Positions 15,636 to 27,376 of a stretch of 32,000 nt of DNA are shown in pieces. The position numbers and the translations under genes are program-made. Every line of letters starts with the position of its first letter. Position 1 is the stretch's first letter. This stretch comes from an uncultured bacterium. Its GTDB lineage: Bacteria; Margulisbacteria; WOR-1; CAVSGV01. The stretch covers positions 1,140,001 to 1,172,000 of the forward strand of contig OY969425.1 in assembly GCA_963699255.1 (NCBI GenBank), read 5' to 3'. The notes beneath the pieces were generated by a model, which was given only the letters and a program-made list of their open reading frames with translations, was not told the DNA's origin and did not search any database.

Positions 15636-16247
15636 CTAATTTTGTGAGTATGGGGGGATAAATTTTTCAAGGCGGCATTTTTCAGAATAGAGAATATTTG
15701 CAAAATTTTTCATGTTCCACCCCAGACCTGTCATGCCGCTTCGAGCATCGATCTTGTCCATCTCATTCTTGTCAAAAGTTAGAGCTTTTGACTCTCGATA
15801 AGTATCCAGGCTGGACTTTCCATCTTTGCCACAGGAATAAAAATTAGTGACCCAATGCGCATAAGCATCAATGAATTGCTCCACGATCCGATCCATTACC
15901 CCCACCAATTCCGGGCAAAGTTCTTTGAACATTATGAAGTCTCTTTGTTCATTTGTTTTTTTATTTGAGATGTCAGCCGCGCTCCCCATTAGATTATTCC
16001 AAAGATCGAGCGCTCGAGGTATTTTCCCTGTGGTCAATGATTTGAGACCGTCTGAGATTATTTTGTCGGCCGCGTTCAAGCGTCTTTTAGCATACTTGCC
16101 GATCAACAACGCTTGGTCGTCAAAATCAAGGTCAAGGAATCGCTCTCTGATACCGCGACGGACAGGTGAATTCGGTGAATGCTGCAGTATTGCGCGGCTT
16201 AGCCACCTATTCATTCTGGGATCCGGTTTATAATCGCCTATTCTCAT
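15636..16247 (-). CDS. Hypothetical protein, paralog A of a tandem pair (203 aa)
   Basis: ORF track. It shares HWVTNFYSCGKDGKSS...MDKID...G with its neighbour. GGAG SD upstream. No family recognised. Confidence 0.6.
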   Translation of the reverse strand: MRIGDYKPDPRMNRWLSRAILQHSPNSPVRRGIRERFLDLDFDDQALLIGKYAKRRLNAADKIISDGLKSLTTGKIPRALDLWNNLMGSAADISNKKTNEQRDFIMFKELCPELVGVMDRIVEQFIDAYAHWVTNFYSCGKDGKSSLDTYRESKALTFDKNEMDKIDARSGMTGLGWNMKNFANILYSEKCRLEKFIPPYSQN

Positions 16248-16289
16248 AAGATCTCCTTATTTTGACCGGCAGTCCTTATCTTGACCCGT

Positions 16290-16311
16290 ATTTATATCGT
16301 CATATTCTTTC
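16290..16311 (-). promoter_or_regulatory. Conserved 22-nt upstream motif, copy A (ATTTATATCGTCATATTCTTTC on the + strand)
   Basis: 21 of 22 positions match 16980-17001. It begins 42 nt upstream of start 16247. The minus strand reads GAAAGAATATGACGATATAAAT, which contains a -10-like TATAAA. Confidence 0.5.
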
Positions 16312-16344
16312 GGGAATTTCGCTTGACCGTGGAATATTTCAGGC

Positions 16345-16935
16345 TTAGATCTTATAACTTTCGGGGAAATTCTTTAAGAGGAGATCGTCCGCATATTTTT
16401 TTATGTGTTGTCCCAGAAGATTCATGTCGCTTTTGTCATTGATCATTTGCATATCATCACTGCTTAAATCGCGAGCTGCTGAATTTTTACAGGCCGAAAA
16501 ACTGCGCTCTCCATCTCCGCCACAGGAATAAAAATTGTCCACCCAATACTTGAATGATCCCGTGAAAAGCCTCGTGATCTCACTGGATACATCCGCCAAT
16601 TGCGGGTAAAGCTTGTTGATCGTTTTGATCATCAGGTAATCGCTCTTTTTATCTGTTTTAATATTTTCACCAGGCTTTTCATAAGAATTCGCAAGTACCC
16701 TGAACCAGAGATAAACTGCAGTTGGTTTTGTTTTTCCTGAAATATGCTGTGATATTAATTTATTGACTTGATTCAACTGCAATTTAGCAACCGTACCGAT
16801 CTCCTTCGCCTGTTCGGCGGGGGAAAGCCGCCGAAATTTCAATCTGTCAGCAGGGGTAATAGCTGATGGGTCAGACATGGCGCGACGTGCAAGAGTATGC
16901 GCGTAAGGCAGCTTGTTTCCAATTATTGTTGTCAT
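16345..16935 (-). CDS. Hypothetical protein, paralog B of a tandem pair (196 aa)
   Basis: ORF track. Motif YWVDNFYSCGGDGERS...MQMIN...G. GGGGGA SD upstream. Confidence 0.6.
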   Translation of the reverse strand: MTTIIGNKLPYAHTLARRAMSDPSAITPADRLKFRRLSPAEQAKEIGTVAKLQLNQVNKLISQHISGKTKPTAVYLWFRVLANSYEKPGENIKTDKKSDYLMIKTINKLYPQLADVSSEITRLFTGSFKYWVDNFYSCGGDGERSFSACKNSAARDLSSDDMQMINDKSDMNLLGQHIKKYADDLLLKNFPESYKI

Positions 16936-20307: not shown

Positions 20308-20832
20308 ATGGATCAATGGCTTATAGACGCGATCACCAAGCTGGATCCTGATGAGACCGCGAAGATAAAGTTGTTATATCCCCCTCTCCAAGTCAAAGCT
20401 TACAAACTAACTATTGATGTCCACAAGCACGGATTAAAGGGCGGTGTTTTCTGTTCTTATCGCAGTTTCCAGGAGCAGGCGGCGACGTACGCGAAAGGCA
20501 GGGATGCGAAGGGGAACATTGTGAACCCAAAGCTGGTGGTCTCGAACACGAAGCCGGGGTACAGCTGGCATCAATGGGGGCTTGCCATTGACTGGGTGTT
20601 CAAGGACGCGAAGGGTGCGTGGACGTGGGATAATTCGCAGCCATGGGCGGAGTTAGGAGCGATAGGAAGGCAATATATGTCGTGGGGCGGAGATTGGCCG
20701 AAGTTCCCCGACAGGCCGCACTTTGAGAAAACATATGATCTGGATATTGAGAAGATCAACCAGGTCTATATTAAGAACGGTAAAAGTCTCGCGGCGGTGT
20801 GGAAGTATATGGATAATGTCATAAAAGCATAA
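20308..20832 (+). CDS. M15-family (VanY / phage-endolysin-type) zinc peptidoglycan peptidase, 174 aa
   Basis: ORF track. SYRSFQEQ, SWHQWGLAID (H, D ligands) and DRPHFE (H ligand). No signal peptide. Confidence 0.85.
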   Translation: MDQWLIDAITKLDPDETAKIKLLYPPLQVKAYKLTIDVHKHGLKGGVFCSYRSFQEQAATYAKGRDAKGNIVNPKLVVSNTKPGYSWHQWGLAIDWVFKDAKGAWTWDNSQPWAELGAIGRQYMSWGGDWPKFPDRPHFEKTYDLDIEKINQVYIKNGKSLAAVWKYMDNVIKA

Positions 20833-20897
20833 GAAGGCGTGTAATAAAATAGATTTTTTAAGGCCTCCTGACAAATAACAATAAGTGAGGTGAAATA

Positions 20898-21506
20898 ATG
20901 CACGTATCTATATTAATATCAATAGTAGCCTTATTTCTATCAGGGTATACATTTTACTTTTCGTTTATAAGACCATGTAAAATTGATGTTTATGTAGGCG
21001 ACAAAATAGGCATAGTTAAATCGTCCGGTGGAGACTATTCGAAGGTTCACCTTAACTGCAACTTTGTTAACAATACCCCAAGTAATGGCGTGATCGATAA
21101 AATATTATTGGAAATTGAAGCTCCTGATAAAAAGAAATATCAATTTGACTGGGATGAATATTATAAATATGTGGGAAATCAAGGCGTCGAACCCGAATCT
21201 TTATCGTTTCCTATTGCCATTAATTCAAAGAATTCTGTTTATAAAGGCATTCAATTCAAAATGCGCGATCACTCAGAAATCATAGGTTCCAGAACTGTTT
21301 CGGAAACGAGCATATCATGGACAACCGGAAAATACACACTTACTATCAAGGGCTGGTCAAATAAATCCAGCATAAATGAAAAGCCAAATATTATTAAGCT
21401 TTTTCAAATAGATATTAATGCAATTAAATTAGATGAAATTACTCATATAAATGCAGGCGAGCACGCAATGGTTGTATTTATTCCTCTGTCAGGTTGGGAT
21501 GAATAA
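20898..21506 (+). CDS. Single-pass membrane protein with beta-rich extracytoplasmic domain, unknown function, 202 aa
   Basis: ORF track. GAGGTG SD upstream. N-terminal TM ILISIVALFLSGYTFYFSFI. AT-rich coding sequence. Confidence 0.6.
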   Translation: MHVSILISIVALFLSGYTFYFSFIRPCKIDVYVGDKIGIVKSSGGDYSKVHLNCNFVNNTPSNGVIDKILLEIEAPDKKKYQFDWDEYYKYVGNQGVEPESLSFPIAINSKNSVYKGIQFKMRDHSEIIGSRTVSETSISWTTGKYTLTIKGWSNKSSINEKPNIIKLFQIDINAIKLDEITHINAGEHAMVVFIPLSGWDE

Positions 21507-22431
21507 TAGATTACAAAAAGACAAACAGATAAATTCCATTGATGCCATCATCAATAAACTAGAAAAGATTATTGGGTCCTTTAGCGAACAGGAGATTAAT
21601 AAGCTTCACAGCTTCTCTTCAACCGCAGATGAAAGAGCAAAGGGGTTTTATGCTGGTTCAAAAGAATATTGTGATTATATTACGAACAACATTATAGGCA
21701 TTTTAAAGGGGATAATTAAACCAAACAAAAGAGAGACGCTATTAATCGGATTGTTTGGTCGATTTTATGGGAGGCTTAGAGATGCTGTTCAGCTAAATAA
21801 TTGGATATATTTCGAGTCTACTGCATCAGCAACTAGGACAATGTTTGAGATTCTTGTTGATATGATATTAATAAGTAAGGACACGTCCTCTGTTAGCATT
21901 GATAAATACTTCGAATATATAGATCTGAAGAAATATGATTACATGAAAAAGTATTATGAGTATATTGATGCGAAAAAGTGTAGCAAAAATGAATTTTATT
22001 ATAGCGCAAAAGAATATGTTGATAATATAAACAAATCAAAGGATGTTGCTAGCACTATTAAACAAGTATGGCGAGCGGAAAAACTCCCAAAAACTTGGAC
22101 AGGGAATGACCTTGCGACTAACGCAGAAAATGCCGAACTAAGTGAAATATATAGGTATCTATATGCAAGATTGTGTTGGCAAACCCATTCGGGCTTAACG
22201 CATGTTTTAGGGTTTAAACAAGACTACTTTATCAATACATATGGCGAAGCCCACCTTAACATTCAAGCATTTACTATGAGAATGTTGCGAATTTTTATTG
22301 GCGAATTTAAACTCGACAAAGCAATGCCTAATCTTATGAAATCAATAGAAACCGTTGAACAAGTCCCAGCAATTTCGTTTATCATACAAGATCTTAATAA
22401 AATGAATCAAGCTACAGTTAAACCAAAATAA
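21499..22431 (+). CDS. Alpha-helical protein with Rx5H motif; possible HEPN/DUF5677-like, ~310 aa
   Basis: I trimmed the ORF-track frame to MNNRLQKDK. Its ATG overlaps the upstream stop by 8 nt (ATGAATAA). It contains LFGRFYGRLRDAVQL...TMFEILVDMIL and YARLCWQTHSGL (R at 22168-70, H at 22186-88). The family assignment is from memory and unverified. Confidence 0.5.
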   Translation: MNNRLQKDKQINSIDAIINKLEKIIGSFSEQEINKLHSFSSTADERAKGFYAGSKEYCDYITNNIIGILKGIIKPNKRETLLIGLFGRFYGRLRDAVQLNNWIYFESTASATRTMFEILVDMILISKDTSSVSIDKYFEYIDLKKYDYMKKYYEYIDAKKCSKNEFYYSAKEYVDNINKSKDVASTIKQVWRAEKLPKTWTGNDLATNAENAELSEIYRYLYARLCWQTHSGLTHVLGFKQDYFINTYGEAHLNIQAFTMRMLRIFIGEFKLDKAMPNLMKSIETVEQVPAISFIIQDLNKMNQATVKPK

Positions 22432-22685
22432 TTCAATCTAACATTTATCTAATACTTCGTGTCATTTTTAACTGATTTCAACCGACTTACTCCGACTTTA
22501 CATAACCCAAAGGTTGGCTGGCACACCCTTTCCGCATTTGGCCCCAGAACATTGATCTCCCCTTCCCTTCGCCATCTTGGATTACCAGCAAAACTTTAAA
22601 AAATGTGAAATTTTCAACATAATTTGCCGAAATACCACAGTGAAGAGGAATTTGAGCCCGAATAATAAGTATAGGAGGAATTAAT

Positions 22686-23165
22686 GTGGTCAGCATAAAG
22701 CCTGTCTATGTAAGATTACGAGATCATAGTACATTTCCTAAGGCCGCCTATGGCAAAATAAGCCGGCAGCTGTTAAGCAGTGTTTCCTGCCTGCCCAAGG
22801 ACATCCTGGAAAAGATACACTTTCCCCCTACCGTCGTTCGATTGCCAATTACACTGCTGGAAAAAGCCTTAAAAGACATCAGGCCCGAAACCCCCGTAAA
22901 TTTCGGATATTATTCCGATAAGCCGTCAACAACCTTTAAGGCGGCTGTCGAACTAATGAATGCTCACTTAAAATTGTCGAACGCGGTGATTGCAGTAAAT
23001 ATTGATGGTAAGACAGCCGCACTCAATGAGAGATGGGTAGGCGCTCCAATGCAGCTGAATTTCTACAGACTATTCGATAATAACGGGAAGTTAGAGAATA
23101 CGAACGGTGAAGACACTATACACATCGACCTGACCAGCATGCGCATCGCAAAGTTAGGTGCGTGA
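22686..23165 (+). CDS. Hypothetical protein, paralog 1 of a tandem pair, 159 aa, GTG start
   Basis: ORF track. AGGAGG lies 7 nt upstream of GTG. Shared motif (V/I)SCLPxxILEKxxFP...SxAVIAV. Confidence 0.6.
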   Translation: MVSIKPVYVRLRDHSTFPKAAYGKISRQLLSSVSCLPKDILEKIHFPPTVVRLPITLLEKALKDIRPETPVNFGYYSDKPSTTFKAAVELMNAHLKLSNAVIAVNIDGKTAALNERWVGAPMQLNFYRLFDNNGKLENTNGEDTIHIDLTSMRIAKLGA

Positions 23166-23183
23166 AATTAATTCAAAAACTCG

Positions 23184-23197
23184 CCGATATATATCGG
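23184..23197. promoter_or_regulatory. Perfect 14-bp palindrome CCGATATATATCGG between the two paralogs
   Basis: It is exactly self-complementary and lies 5 nt upstream of the AAGGAGG SD of 23213. Confidence 0.4.
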
Positions 23198-23212
23198 TAA
23201 GGAGGGATCAAT

Positions 23213-23701
23213 GTGAAGATCGGAGCGGATCATGTATATTTTAAACTGCTCAATCAAACCGGTTTTCCTAAACAACCGTACTGCAATCTGACCTCCAGGC
23301 TGCTGGGACATATTTCCTGCCTGCCCGGGAACATCCTGGAAAAGATGCGTTTTCCCGACAGTAATTCCCGATTTCCATCAACGCCGCTGGAAAATGCCCT
23401 AAAAGCAATCACGCTTCATACGCCCATAACTTTCCCCGAAGATCCCAATAAAGCACAACATAGAACGTTCCTTTCGGCCATTAACCTGTTCAAAAAGCAC
23501 ATAGATCTGTCGAGCGCAGTTATCGCAGTTACGATAGGACCAAAGACGAACGAACTTGGCGAGACATGGAACGACGCTCCCCTCCAGCTGAAATTCTCCA
23601 GGACACATACTAATATTTACGGCGGCTTAAATGACAGTAGACGCAAGGAAACTATCTGCGTGGACCTGAACGGCCTGCGCATAGAAAATAAAAACAGGTA
23701 A
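23213..23701 (+). CDS. Hypothetical protein, paralog 2 of a tandem pair, 162 aa, GTG start
   Basis: ORF track. AAGGAGG SD upstream. Roughly 30% identical to paralog 1 by eye. Confidence 0.6.
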   Translation: MKIGADHVYFKLLNQTGFPKQPYCNLTSRLLGHISCLPGNILEKMRFPDSNSRFPSTPLENALKAITLHTPITFPEDPNKAQHRTFLSAINLFKKHIDLSSAVIAVTIGPKTNELGETWNDAPLQLKFSRTHTNIYGGLNDSRRKETICVDLNGLRIENKNR

Positions 23702-23841
23702 AGACCCTTCATTCCCCTATTTTGTCTCCCGTATCTTTGAAAACACTACAAATCAACTTTACAATGAACGCCGTATATAAAAAGAACGGCAACGGTCTTG
23801 CTGCTGTATGGAAATATATGGATAGCGTCATGAACGGCTGA
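23701..23841 (+). pseudogene. 3'-terminal remnant of a second, diverged M15 peptidase gene
   Basis: The frame ending at TGA 23839-41 reads ...NAVYKKNGNGLAAVWKYMDSVMNG*. The intact gene ends QVYIKNGKSLAAVWKYMDNVIKA*. By hand count, 15 of 22 aa and 51 of 69 nt are identical. No catalytic part is present. Confidence 0.6.
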
Positions 23842-23848
23842 GGGCTCC

Positions 23849-24952
23849 TCAGTCCGGAAAACCTAAAACATAGGGATACAATTGCCTTGCTAATTTCGAT
23901 TGAGCCAGCCTCAACGCGAAATTCTCCGACCATATTTCCTGCAATGATCTTTGTCCGTCTATACTGCCAAGGTTTACCGATGGAATTGACGCGAATGACG
24001 GGATCTTTTTCCTGAACTCATCACTAAAATGCACCATCTGGCTTATTCCTACGCTCCCGTCCGCGGTTATTCTCATTCCGGCGCCGCGGTAATATTCGGA
24101 AAATATAGTAATGGGCATGGCTGACGGCATTTTCGTCTTTTTCATGGACAATGGGCAGCTTATAAAAGGCAGGAAGCGGGGGGTTGTTATTGTTATGTCA
24201 TTCAGTTTCTCCTCCAGATCGGACAGGTCATCAGGGCCCACAAATCCTACTTTGGAATAAGCATTCGTTCCAAGAAGTTTGAACGGAGTGACATGATAAT
24301 GCCTCAAACCGCATCCCGCCAGATACGCCGCGAATTCCGGAATATATGTCAGATTGTTCTTGTATAAAGTGGAAAGGACGACCAGCTGGTTCCCTTTCTT
24401 AAGCAAAGAAGGCAGAAGCCAGTTCATGACTTTGCGGTATTGTATCGGATTCCTGTACTTTGCGTTGATGTCCTCAGGCCCGTCCAGGCTTACAATGATC
24501 TTAGACCTGGGATTGTCTAACATCGACAATACACGTTCTTCGTTCAGCCGCATGCCGTTCGTTATCAGATTCGCCGAGGTGAATTCCTTTTGTGTCGCGT
24601 AGTCCCACAATTCGTAGAAGTGAGGATGGAGCATGGCTTCCCCTCCCCTTATCGCCAGTTCAAAAGCCCGCAGCTCGTCAGCTTCATCGATGACCCCCTT
24701 TACCGCATCGTCCCGCATTATGATCCGCCCTTCCATGCCGCTCTGCGAACAATACGAACATTTTGAATCGCAGCCCCGGAATATCTCAAGCACTATGCGG
24801 ACCGGGAATTTCAGTTTTGCGGGATCAAATTTATTGTGCCGGCCTGCCAGGTCCTTTACGGACACCAGCCTGTCCAGGGGATCGAAGGTCAATTGGATAT
24901 TGCCGTCTCTCCTTGCACGAAGGTAATTATTATCTTTTATCCTAATGTCCAA
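23849..24952 (-). CDS. Radical SAM enzyme, 367 aa, unknown substrate
   Basis: ORF track. CX3CX2C cluster motif GCDSKCSYC and GGEAMLHP. No Cys-rich SPASM-type C-terminus. Confidence 0.85.
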   Translation of the reverse strand: MDIRIKDNNYLRARRDGNIQLTFDPLDRLVSVKDLAGRHNKFDPAKLKFPVRIVLEIFRGCDSKCSYCSQSGMEGRIIMRDDAVKGVIDEADELRAFELAIRGGEAMLHPHFYELWDYATQKEFTSANLITNGMRLNEERVLSMLDNPRSKIIVSLDGPEDINAKYRNPIQYRKVMNWLLPSLLKKGNQLVVLSTLYKNNLTYIPEFAAYLAGCGLRHYHVTPFKLLGTNAYSKVGFVGPDDLSDLEEKLNDITITTPRFLPFISCPLSMKKTKMPSAMPITIFSEYYRGAGMRITADGSVGISQMVHFSDEFRKKIPSFASIPSVNLGSIDGQRSLQEIWSENFALRLAQSKLARQLYPYVLGFPD

Positions 24953-26090
24953 CGTTCTGCTCCATCATGCGAAACAGTTTAATAAAATATCCCTGGGGGG
25001 TAAGCATGTCTTCCCACAACAAACGGTTGCTTTCCTGCATCTCCTTGAATCCATTGGATGAAATACCGCCATGAAAATCTGAAATGATCTTTGCGATGTT
25101 CTTTACGTCCCCGTGTTCGACCCAGACGCAGTGTTTGCGCCAGTCTATCTCCGTCGGCAATGGCAGAGGGGAATCGGTATTCACGAACACAGGAATACGG
25201 CCGGATGCCAGGACTTCGTAAAAACGGTAGGAATAATTGCCCTTGCCTCTTACGCACAGCACGTAATCGCTCCCGAAAATGCTGTCGTAGTATTCTTTTC
25301 GCACGCGCGCCAGTCCCCGTGCGTCGCTTTCCCTGTCTATACCCGCGCAGTAACCGCTTTTGTACGCGATGTCCGTGGATACGTTGCCCGCCGACTCCAA
25401 AAAGCCAAGGACCGTGCCTCTGAAAGAATAAATACGGTCGTATTTATCCTGCAGTCCCATGCCGGAGAAAGCGTTCTCCACCGACAGGTGGAAATCATCC
25501 AGCTGTCTTGCCGTCAGCGGCGTAGTGTTAGCCCCCCCACAGAAGCTTATATTTGGTGTTCTGCTCCATTTTCTTATCTGCGGCACTCCGTTGCTGTATA
25601 CAGCGAGAGGGTCTCCCACGAATCCTGGCATGGAATATTCATTCGGCATGCGTCTTGAGTCGTTGAACGAAGTACGGATTACCACGACACTGTCCATCCA
25701 TGGAGAACCGGCGTCAGAGAATATCGGGATCGGCGAATCGTCGTCGGAATTATACTGGACCATTATCTTTTTGTTCACTACTTTCATTTCGTTCAGGAAC
25801 CGCAAAGCCAGGCTGGTCGCATCCTCCCGCAGGTAATATTTCCAATCGGAAGGCAGGACAGCCCAGTCAGCATTTCGTTTGTCATCGGTATATTCAAAAT
25901 GTTTATTCCAGTTGGCGACAAGTCCGGCAAACCTGTCCATGTCACGGAACTCCGACTTGTCTTTGAAATCAAATTTGTTTTTATGGCGCATCTGCCACAA
26001 TGGATGCAGAATAAATGAAGGGGGCGTCGCCTTTTTGGGTTTGGCGGGCCAATAAGTGTAGAGCCGTATTTTGGAACTTTCTAAAGTCAT
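24942..26090 (-). CDS. Exostosin (GT47)-like glycosyltransferase, 382 aa
   Basis: ORF track. LCVRGKGNYSYRFYEVLASGRIPVFVNTDSPLPLPTEIDWRKHCVWV matches the exostosin-family C-terminal signature as I remember it. Its 3' end overlaps the radical SAM start by 11 nt. Confidence 0.6.
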   Translation of the reverse strand: MTLESSKIRLYTYWPAKPKKATPPSFILHPLWQMRHKNKFDFKDKSEFRDMDRFAGLVANWNKHFEYTDDKRNADWAVLPSDWKYYLREDATSLALRFLNEMKVVNKKIMVQYNSDDDSPIPIFSDAGSPWMDSVVVIRTSFNDSRRMPNEYSMPGFVGDPLAVYSNGVPQIRKWSRTPNISFCGGANTTPLTARQLDDFHLSVENAFSGMGLQDKYDRIYSFRGTVLGFLESAGNVSTDIAYKSGYCAGIDRESDARGLARVRKEYYDSIFGSDYVLCVRGKGNYSYRFYEVLASGRIPVFVNTDSPLPLPTEIDWRKHCVWVEHGDVKNIAKIISDFHGGISSNGFKEMQESNRLLWEDMLTPQGYFIKLFRMMEQNVGH

Positions 26091-26224
26091 TTTTTGATCA
26101 CCCTTATGTTATCGAAAATATCCGCACAAGATTTCAAATTAAGTGAAATTTCCGGATCATTCCTTCGATGACTACAGGTAATATCGCGTGCGTCTTGGCA
26201 CATAATTTTAAAGGGGGAATGAAC

Positions 26225-27376
26225 ATGAGCATGGCAGTAATCAGAGTTTCGGGTGCTTGTTCAAAGGTGGTCCTGCAGCAGCCGGAAGGAGCTGCCGAAA
26301 AATGCATCAATCAGGGCGTCGCCCTGTTCAATGCGGGAAAATTGGATGAGGCAGCCAAGCAATTCAAAAAAGCGATAAGCATCAACCCCGACCTCCCTCT
26401 CGCCCACAGAAATTTAGCCGTTGTTTACCAGGCGCAGGGCCGTCTTGATGATGCCGTTGAAGAATATAAAATTGTTGTAGATCTTGAACCGAACAGTTCC
26501 GACGCCCACAATGATCTGGGCATGGCTTACTATAACCAGACTTATTACAATTCCATTTATAACGCCACAGATGAATTCACGGCGGCTGTAACCCTTAATC
26601 AAAAGAATGCCAGCGCCCATGCTAATTTAGGCAGCTGTTATTTAAGAACGGGTGACATTAAAAAAGCCGTAGATGAATTGAAAATTGTCTTACGCATCAA
26701 ACCAAATGATGACAACACGCACGATTTGTTAGGCCTTGCTTACGATGCTCAGGGGGATAAAAAGCAGGCGGTCGATGAATTCAAAACTGCCGTGCGCATT
26801 AATCCGAAAAACGGCGAAGCCCACAATCATTTAGGCAGCGAATACATTGATCAGGACCTTCTCGCTGACGGCATCACAGAGGTAAAAAAGGCCATCAGCA
26901 TCAATAAGGACAATGACGGCGCCCACGATAATCTGGGCGTAGCCTACCTGAAACAGGGACTTACCAACGATGCCATTGACGAATTCAAAACGGCCATTCG
27001 CATCAATTCCAAGAACGGCGGCGCCCACTTTCATTTAGGCTTGATCTATCAGCAACAGCCTCTTAAATTAGATACCGCTATCGCGGAATTCGGATGGGCG
27101 GCCGAAGTTGCCCCGGAAAATGGCATGTACAGCAATTATTGGGGCAATGCGCTGCTGGAACAGGGTTATGGGTCGAACCTTATTCATGCCGAATACGCGT
27201 TCAAACTCACCCTCATATACAACTCTAATGATGACAAAGCCCATTACGGCCTGGGTATTGTATACATGAAACAGGGCCAAACAGACAAAGCCATAAATGA
27301 ATTTGAAAAGGCTTTCGGCATAAACCCCAATAATATTGAGGCGAAAAATAAATTGGATAGCCTGCGAAAACTTTAG
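26225..27376 (+). CDS. Tetratricopeptide-repeat (TPR) protein, ~383 aa
   Basis: ORF track. I chose ATG 26225, 7 nt after GGGGG; ATG 26219 and 26231 are alternatives. At least 8 repeats of the A..F...I.INP......H.NLG.AY type. Confidence 0.85.
   Translation: MSMAVIRVSGACSKVVLQQPEGAAEKCINQGVALFNAGKLDEAAKQFKKAISINPDLPLAHRNLAVVYQAQGRLDDAVEEYKIVVDLEPNSSDAHNDLGMAYYNQTYYNSIYNATDEFTAAVTLNQKNASAHANLGSCYLRTGDIKKAVDELKIVLRIKPNDDNTHDLLGLAYDAQGDKKQAVDEFKTAVRINPKNGEAHNHLGSEYIDQDLLADGITEVKKAISINKDNDGAHDNLGVAYLKQGLTNDAIDEFKTAIRINSKNGGAHFHLGLIYQQQPLKLDTAIAEFGWAAEVAPENGMYSNYWGNALLEQGYGSNLIHAEYAFKLTLIYNSNDDKAHYGLGIVYMKQGQTDKAINEFEKAFGINPNNIEAKNKLDSLRKL

Follow-up and report, generated by a model that had tools for sequence, protein, structure and literature searches.

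An overlapping gene pair for a predicted membrane beta-sandwich protein and a divergent DUF5677 protein in AT-rich DNA of an uncultured Margulisbacteria: a candidate conflict module

Here we describe two overlapping genes, called gene 1 and gene 2, located in a 32,000-nucleotide stretch of contig OY969425.1 (positions 1,140,001 to 1,172,000 of the forward strand, GenBank assembly GCA_963699255.1) from an uncultured bacterium of the Margulisbacteria. The whole of this stretch is referred to as the window, and all coordinates of the locus are those of the window. Gene 1 codes for a predicted single-pass membrane protein and gene 2 for a very divergent member of the DUF5677 family. Based on the composition of the DNA, a bracketing repeat and the neighborhoods of homologs, we tentatively regard the pair as a horizontally acquired candidate conflict or abortive-infection module.

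The gene pair and its AT-rich setting

Two same-strand open reading frames (ORFs) occupy positions 20880-22480. They belong to a larger segment placed between two copies of a direct repeat, with the following features.

20308-20832, plus strand: M15/VanY-type peptidase gene (Pfam Peptidase_M15_4, E = 9.9e-10; VanY, E = 4.3e-9)
20755-20825: left copy of a 71-nucleotide (nt) direct repeat, made of the last approximately 24 codons and the stop codon of the M15 gene
20836-23763: bracketed cargo of about 2.9 kb, containing gene 1, gene 2 and two paralogous ORFs of about 160 amino acids (aa); G+C content 38.3% overall
20887-20892, plus strand: Shine-Dalgarno-like GAGGTG, read directly in the sequence, 5 nt 5' of the gene 1 ATG
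20898-21506, plus strand: gene 1, 202 aa, unnamed family, predicted single-pass membrane protein with an immunoglobulin-like (Ig-like) beta-sandwich
20901-20969, plus strand: transmembrane helix of gene 1, residues 2-24, a helix in the AlphaFold2 (AF2) model, predicted N-out/C-in
20982-21491, plus strand: beta-sandwich of gene 1, residues 29-198 (AF2), predicted to be cytoplasmic
21499-22431, plus strand: gene 2, 310 aa, divergent DUF5677 protein, predicted to be cytoplasmic
21739-22203, plus strand: DUF5677 (PF18928) match of gene 2, residues 81-235, covering Pfam profile positions 3-154 of 166
22168-22188, plus strand: R-x5-H spacing of gene 2, R224 (22168-70) to H230 (22186-88), within YARLCWQTHSG
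22686-23165, plus strand: cargo ORF of 159 aa with a GTG start, paralog of the 162-aa ORF, no family
23213-23701, plus strand: cargo ORF of 162 aa with a GTG start, paralog of the 159-aa ORF, no family
23764-23834: right copy of the repeat, an orphan remnant of an M15 3' end, in frame and with its own stop codon

The initial annotation of this locus had pointed to a visible drop in G+C content over the pair and had taken it as a sign of foreign DNA. The drop and the foreign composition are confirmed, as the segment 20880-22480 has 33.2% G+C (33.7% in gene 1 and 33.3% in gene 2), compared to 49.9% in the flanking M15 gene and 50.3% in gatB, which gives z = -4.9 against all other 1.6-kb segments of the window (47.3 ± 2.9%, minimum 40.4%). 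Downstream of the pair the rise is gradual: the spacer 22432-22685 has 38% and the two following ORFs reach 46-47%. The latter are tandem paralogs (43% identical, E = 1e-37) with no match in Pfam, PADLOC or NCBIfam; in PHROGs the 159-aa protein has none and the 162-aa protein reaches E = 0.3. Because the pair lies at 33% and the paralogs at 46-47%, the cargo is compositionally composite, which suggests more than one acquisition.

Gene 2 was said to start inside the end of gene 1, and this is what the sequence contains: the junction reads ATGAATAA, with the ATG at 21499 placed within GATGAATAA and overlapping by 8 nt the gene 1 end with its stop codon TAA (21504-21506). Such an overlap suggests co-translation of both genes. 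An alternative start, ATG 21451, would give the 326-aa form found in the public annotation; we prefer 21499, which is preceded by AGGTTGGG, because no Shine-Dalgarno-like sequence lies upstream of ATG 21451. Scanning for promoters and terminators gave no signal above the shuffled expectation, and Rfam had no match in the window.

Copies of the direct repeat are 75% identical, spaced by 3009 nt, and their homology stops just beyond the stop codon. The remnant on the right translates to ...MNAVYKKNGNGLAAVWKYMDSVMNG followed by a stop, compared to INQVYIKNGKSLAAVWKYMDNVIKA and a stop in the intact M15 gene, whose product matches PHROG endolysin families down to E = 5.7e-19; the cargo is bracketed and adjoins a peptidase gene matching phage endolysin families, in agreement with what had been proposed. 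We suppose that the 2.9-kb cargo entered at the 3' end of the M15 peptidase gene, either by insertion or by recombination. A repeat duplicating the 3' end of the target, one of the two features looked for in an island at a gene 3' end, is present; the other, a recombinase, was not found among the cargo ORFs, as none of the four matches an integrase or recombinase family in a Pfam scan of these ORFs.

The nearest relative found (locus L023, GatB 77% identical) keeps gatCAB together with an upstream gene, and within 10 kb of its gatCAB there is no M15 gene, no pair and none of the downstream genes. A conserved core pair in synteny, which would have spoken against the initial annotation, is excluded by this, but the relative is too distant to reveal an empty site. 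On the other side of the cassette, opposite to gatCAB, lie radical SAM and GT47 genes, and the flanks carry no other phage genes. The foreign origin of the pair is favored because of its G+C content (33% versus 47%), the bracketing repeat, the absence beside gatCAB in the nearest relative and the scarcity of close homologs.

Two protein families and the R-x5-H spacing

Modeling of gene 1 with AF2 on a 47-sequence alignment gave a confident structure (predicted local distance difference test, pLDDT, 94.4; predicted template modeling score, pTM, 0.86), in which helix 2-24 is joined by a four-residue linker to a beta-sandwich of residues 29-198 that includes one short helix. One N-terminal transmembrane helix and a beta-rich body, both expected beforehand, were thereby recovered. 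Counting lysines and arginines in the 47 family members, we noticed 17 in the 15 residues before the helix versus 126 in the 15 residues after it. In one relative (P0081) a cytoplasmic TIR domain stands in place of the membrane helix. Because of this asymmetry (positive-inside rule) and the helix-free TIR fusion, we infer that the sandwich faces the cytoplasm, in N-out/C-in topology.

Gene 1 has a single close homolog (56% identical) among 5.8 billion proteins. A profile built from gene 1 and this homolog collected 174 proteins at E <= 1e-3 and 63 at E <= 1e-10 from 1.84 billion cluster representatives, so the family counts at least 174 clusters at 50% identity, nearly all from uncultured lineages. 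Most of these proteins have about 200 aa and match the profile end to end; the window ORF reaches 216.8 bits with the family hidden Markov model (HMM), as a full-length match in which the N-terminal transmembrane helix and the family-conserved residues are all present. Pfam has no family for any of the 47 aligned members, gene 1 itself has no PADLOC, NCBIfam or PHROGs match, and the family is uncatalogued in these four libraries. Within it N58 and W85 are invariant and F88, F120, W141, G144 and W153 near-invariant, which by their nature are mostly residues of an aromatic core and do not look like a catalytic set. Longer members carry extra membrane helices and domains, and three of them lack any Pfam match: P0013 has an N-terminal region of about 280 aa with two transmembrane helices, P0030 a second transmembrane helix followed by a C-terminal Cys-containing domain, and P0098 a helical domain at the C-terminus.

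Comparison of the gene 1 model with the PDB by Foldseek returned generic Ig-like sandwiches as the best matches (E of about 1e-3, template modeling score 0.33-0.38 on the query), among them the Bacillus subtilis proteinase inhibitor 3isy, the luminal domain of TMEM106B (8b7d) and ApaG, and comparison with viral models (BFVD) returned uncharacterized phage proteins of 150-200 aa (E = 4e-5, score 0.4-0.5). Sequence and profile searches of the PDB found nothing for gene 1 or gene 2. Searching with a 3-sequence alignment, we found gene 1 neither in the species-representative genome collection nor at any locus in genome and metagenome contigs. Among plasmids, tblastn with gene 1 detected one Gloeothece plasmid, and the relatives P0015 and P0021 used as queries added no further plasmid loci.

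For gene 2, likeness to DUF5677 had been proposed from the layout of its sequence, and this proved to be correct: it matches PF18928 with E = 1.3e-13 and 51.8 bits, almost twice the gathering threshold of 27.1, and is a true member of the family. At the same time it is very divergent, 11-18% identical to other aligned members, and in word-indexed searches of the 5.8 billion proteins it finds only itself, at E <= 1e-3 as well as at E <= 10. No relative was detected by tblastn in plasmids or in 50,697 phage genomes, and PADLOC, NCBIfam and PHROGs gave no match; with PADLOC-DB v2 at E <= 1 this applies to gene 1, gene 2 and the two cargo paralogs alike. Relatives used for comparison came from a metagenome-assembled genome (MAG) of Elusimicrobiota (locus L009), from three plasmids (Pantoea, Comamonas and Ralstonia) and from 90 loci of IMG/VR and metagenomes.

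Four residues, E117, W191, Y222 and H230, never vary in a 90-sequence alignment of the family; R113 and W200 occur in 89 of 90 sequences and S107 in 99%, and gene 2 has every one of these seven residues. The set R113/E117/Y222/H230 suggests an active or ligand-binding site. The single-sequence AF2 model of gene 2 is all-helical and of low confidence (pLDDT 36.4).

Gene 2 had also been proposed to carry a HEPN nuclease active site, R-x5-H, in the stretch YARLCWQTHSG. The spacing is indeed there, but its meaning did not withstand the alignment. Position 224 is occupied by Y in 56 sequences, H in 20, F in 9, V in 2 and R in 1, namely the window protein, and in the pairwise alignment with the Elusimicrobiota protein LYAYLSSYAHSG stands against LYARLCWQTHSG. 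Because R224 is confined to the window protein, the spacing is, judging by the alignment, a coincidence of this one sequence and not a feature of the family. We consider it very improbable that gene 2 is a HEPN-type RNase with R224 and H230 as catalytic residues, even though H230 is invariant in DUF5677, the low-confidence model is helical and other gene 1 homologs adjoin proteins with canonical RNxxxH motifs. In HEPN motifs the residue after R is usually polar, and gene 2 has L there. Of the profile similarity foreseen to HEPN and DUF5677 together, only the DUF5677 half was found, since six DUF5677 proteins, searched up to E <= 10, match no HEPN family of Pfam and no PADLOC model; hhalign of DUF5677 against two HEPN-like proteins gave a probability below 1%, this being a test of low power. 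Finally, the conserved R113 lies 117 residues from H230, on a different helix. Gene 2 as a HEPN nuclease on the grounds of its motif was thus rejected.

DUF5677 genes elsewhere occupy variable, island-like surroundings. On plasmids they adjoin integrases, a restriction endonuclease and an ABC three-component system. The last case concerns the Comamonas plasmid NZ_CP106883.1 (L014, 1204-5828), where DUF5677 is found 288 nt downstream of the annotated system (a middle component and a DUF3732 ATPase), with a HEPN/Toprim-associated protein and an AAA-ATPase/HNH pair nearby. The 90 further loci have no dominant neighbor, the largest neighbor cluster occurring in 8 of them, mostly viral contigs, and having by eye the look of a phage baseplate protein. 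In several IMG/VR loci (L098, L101, L102 and others) DUF5677 stands beside a conserved protein of about 330-350 aa on the opposite strand, with the look of a phage baseplate-V/gp45-type protein as judged by eye alone. The viral contigs suggest a moron position of DUF5677 in prophage tail modules.

Homolog neighborhoods and the weighing of explanations

In order to place the pair in a wider context, the neighborhoods of gene 1 homologs were inspected at 13 independent family loci. In 2 of the 13 a DUF5677 gene follows directly downstream, the window and the Elusimicrobiota MAG (L009), where the gene 1 homolog, a 13-nt gap, DUF5677 and then a second DUF5677-like paralog come in a row. Gene 1 proteins of these two loci are 30% identical and the DUF5677 proteins barely alignable; because the sequences are so divergent, the arrangement would be either old or assembled twice. 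The tandem DUF5677-type genes of L009 (6613-7482 and 7479-8357) overlap by 4 nt. The second protein is below the Pfam threshold (E = 0.022) and scores 187 bits against our own DUF5677 HMM, a circular value as that HMM included it. A NucS_C nuclease, a 767-aa protein with a weak GHKL-ATPase-like match and an HTH_3/Peptidase_M78 protein are found near the L009 pair.

Surroundings of gene 1 homologs are summarized below.

L005: follows directly on a Type ISP restriction enzyme
L006: flanked by a 499-aa protein with RNKLLVH at its end and by Type I HsdR/HsdM; AbiEii, MNT/HEPN and ParE also close by
L012: preceded by a TIR_2 protein and followed by a 393-aa RNRVWH protein, with IS200-type transposases adjacent
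P0081: fused to a TIR domain, the other neighbors forming a plain metabolic operon
L010: TIR_2 gene about 4 kb away
P0013 locus: DUF1156 methylase, PNP_UDP_1 and a reverse transcriptase near the homolog
L001: Fic-HTH upstream, a 495-aa protein with a weak CAP12/TIR-like match downstream
Gloeothece plasmid: follows an FHA protein; kinase and integrase in the vicinity
L096: borderline DUF1287/CHAP protein and XRE regulator, a weaker signal
L097: IS3 transposase, a weaker signal
L007 and L008: plain metabolic operons

The RNRVWH motif of the 393-aa protein in L012 and the RNKLLVH motif of the 499-aa protein in L006 (4249-5748) were read by eye only. Locus L012 (267-3789) also has a 221-aa protein with RNALVH and a weak RiboL-PSP-HEPN match (E = 0.0028). 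We tested the 495-aa neighbor in L001 and the 499-aa neighbor in L006 as hidden DUF5677 relatives, and a 202-aa ORF upstream of the Ralstonia DUF5677 gene as a gene 1 homolog; none of them proved to be related.

Taken as a whole, these surroundings make a role in defense or abortive infection plausible. A conflict role is favored because gene 1 homologs adjoin restriction, TIR and HEPN-motif genes, and a joint function because of the 8-nt overlap and the same gene order in the Elusimicrobiota locus. We therefore put forward, with a chance that we would place just short of even, that the pair is a horizontally acquired two-gene candidate conflict or abortive-infection module. Gene 1 would be tethered by its one N-terminal helix to the inner side of the cytoplasmic membrane, and its Ig-like sandwich would most likely be a binding or oligomerizing module, because it has no conserved catalytic-looking residues; the protein could be an effector that damages the membrane, or else serve as anchor and adaptor. 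For gene 2 we propose a soluble helical DUF5677 protein that would act as an enzyme or a sensor by means of R113, E117, Y222 and H230. One partner would sense the infection and the other damage the cell, the damage being done either to the membrane or by the activity of DUF5677, and we infer physical coupling of the two proteins.

Several observations speak against such a module. The pairing is sporadic, seen in 2 of the 13 gene 1 loci and in none of the 90 further DUF5677 loci, among which the 57 with at least 700 nt of upstream sequence also lack a gene 1 relative. Some gene 1 homologs are solitary inside metabolic operons, and the neighbor families listed above are Pfam matches, some of them weak, or in some cases motifs read by eye. 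Gene 1 has no relative in the 50,697 phage genomes searched by tblastn, and its 3-sequence alignment found no locus in the viral (IMG/VR) contigs. Neither gene product is recognized by a model of PADLOC, NCBIfam or PHROGs. Finally, of nine candidates tested in Enterococcus faecalis, five are reported to reduce plaquing, and the DUF5677 ORF, the only one with a published test, is not among these (PMC12632615).

The same sporadic pairing can be turned into another explanation, in which gene 1 and gene 2 are carried by the same AT-rich island with no joint function, unrelated to each other, and stand adjacent and overlap by accident. Each family is mostly found without the other (11 of the 13 gene 1 loci, all 90 further DUF5677 loci), as the solitary homologs in metabolic operons also illustrate. 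We nevertheless regard this as rather unlikely, as the same order with tight spacing recurs in a distant phylum with very divergent sequences, a rare family such as DUF5677 is unlikely to stand by chance twice directly downstream of 13 sampled gene 1 homologs, and the overlap suggests co-translation. What can be stated is that both families are mobile and mostly occur apart, and that the pair is recurrent but rare. Two overlapping genes in mobile AT-rich cargo, with homologs among ParE, MNT/HEPN and AbiEii loci, would also fit a toxin-antitoxin or addiction pair, one protein being toxic and the other neutralizing, which stabilizes the island with no response to phage. Sizes of 202 and 310 aa and a membrane beta-sandwich are atypical of classical type II pairs, and no toxin or antitoxin family of Pfam, PADLOC or NCBIfam is matched, which makes this explanation unlikely in our opinion; its boundary with abortive infection is blurred, so that it partly overlaps the conflict module favored here.

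The position directly downstream of a peptidase matching endolysin families raises one more possibility, a phage-derived cassette tied to the M15 gene, with gene 1 resembling a holin, a spanin or a superinfection-exclusion protein and gene 2 a phage accessory protein. Another gene 1 homolog follows the borderline DUF1287/CHAP protein, the best BFVD matches of gene 1 are the phage proteins mentioned above, and DUF5677 occurs in viral contigs. We judge this quite improbable, though, because neither gene was detected in the phage genomes nor gene 1 in IMG/VR, neither flank (gatCAB; radical SAM and GT47) has other phage genes, a spanin would not be oriented toward the cytoplasm as gene 1 is predicted to be, and a protein of 202 aa with a folded domain is unlike holins.

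A much broader proposal is that the gene 1 family is a so far unrecognized, widespread membrane module of abortive-infection systems with interchangeable partners (TIR, HEPN-motif, DUF5677, restriction), that DUF5677 is a new class of effector or sensor enzyme with an R-E-Y-H site, and that the window holds the founding example of a new two-gene system; we find it conceivable, though less likely than not.

If the pair is functional as a conflict module, it would be a defense or conflict system made from two protein families with no assigned function; if it is not, the locus would be an ordinary AT-rich accessory island. Independently of this, DUF5677 gains a testable active-site hypothesis (R113, E117, Y222, H230) that replaces the mistaken HEPN motif, and gene 1 gains a confident fold with a predicted topology. 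The recurrent links of the gene 1 family to proteins of the TIR, restriction-modification and HEPN-motif types may reflect a membrane module that can be reused, which would interest those who catalogue the building blocks of immune systems.

Apart from the pair, the window has some further features worth recording. Between a conserved 341-aa gene and gatC, on the minus strand, there are two ORFs of 203 and 196 aa (15636-16247 and 16345-16935) with no Pfam family, both missing at this position in the nearest relative, where the 341-aa gene abuts gatC; 15636-16935 may be a second variable spot. At 23849-26090, on the minus strand, the genes of a radical SAM protein (367 aa) and a GT47/exostosin-like glycosyltransferase (382 aa) overlap, an unusual pairing that converges on the M15 remnant. 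At 26168-27376 a 402-aa TPR-repeat protein is encoded by a gene with a periodic DNA repeat of 102 nt (34 codons); its 25-nt core occurs five times, and four of these copies keep the 102-nt spacing.

Comparison with known systems

With DUF5677 (PF18928) gene 2 shares a score above the threshold, all conserved residues and a variable, island-like DNA context, and it differs in its 11-18% identity, its singleton status and a membrane-protein partner that is missing in the 90 other loci. In relation to the HEPN superfamily (Rx4-6H RNases, abortive-infection and toxin-antitoxin proteins) it is likewise helical, with one invariant His and an island context, but the Arg of its motif is unconserved and no profile similarity was found.

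As for gene 1, TMEM106B with its LEA-2-like luminal domain (8b7d) has the same arrangement of a single-pass anchor and a sandwich. Given 8-12% identity to TMEM106B, 3isy and ApaG, at the low structural scores reported above, this is a likeness of fold class with no transfer of function.

The closest working analogy, in architecture only, is offered by Cap15 of the cyclic oligonucleotide-based antiphage signaling system (CBASS), which has N-terminal transmembrane helices and a cytoplasmic beta domain, binds a signal, oligomerizes and breaks the membrane (PMC10419184). Gene 1 resembles it by an N-terminal membrane helix, a compact all-beta domain predicted to be cytoplasmic, the lack of catalytic residues and relatives placed beside, or fused to, TIR domains of the signal-producing type. 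It differs by having one helix and not two, and an Ig-like sandwich in place of the Cap15 barrel; Cap15 (7N35) does not appear in the 50 best PDB Foldseek matches of gene 1, no sequence similarity was detected, and the ORFs lying between gatA and the GT47 gene include no CD-NTase, cyclase or TIR.

Transmembrane ThsA variants of Thoeris-type TIR systems may serve as a second analogy. Some members of the gene 1 family adjoin TIR_2 (L012) or are fused to TIR (P0081), the layout of a TIR signal producer with a membrane effector, whereas the window has DUF5677 instead of TIR, and PADLOC, which includes Thoeris models, gives no match for gene 1. The same comparison extends to the Rst_2TM_1TM_TIR system of P2/P4 hotspots.

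The initial annotation recognized no described system with this pairing, and we come to the same conclusion: PADLOC, NCBIfam and PHROGs are negative, and the pairing of gene 1 with DUF5677 is undescribed in the four libraries, and full-text searches on DUF5677 (PF18928) turned up nothing on it. Already known are the DUF5677 family, which is catalogued, and the familiar kind of island-borne two-gene module with a membrane component; new, as far as these sources go, are the gene 1 family and its pairing with DUF5677.

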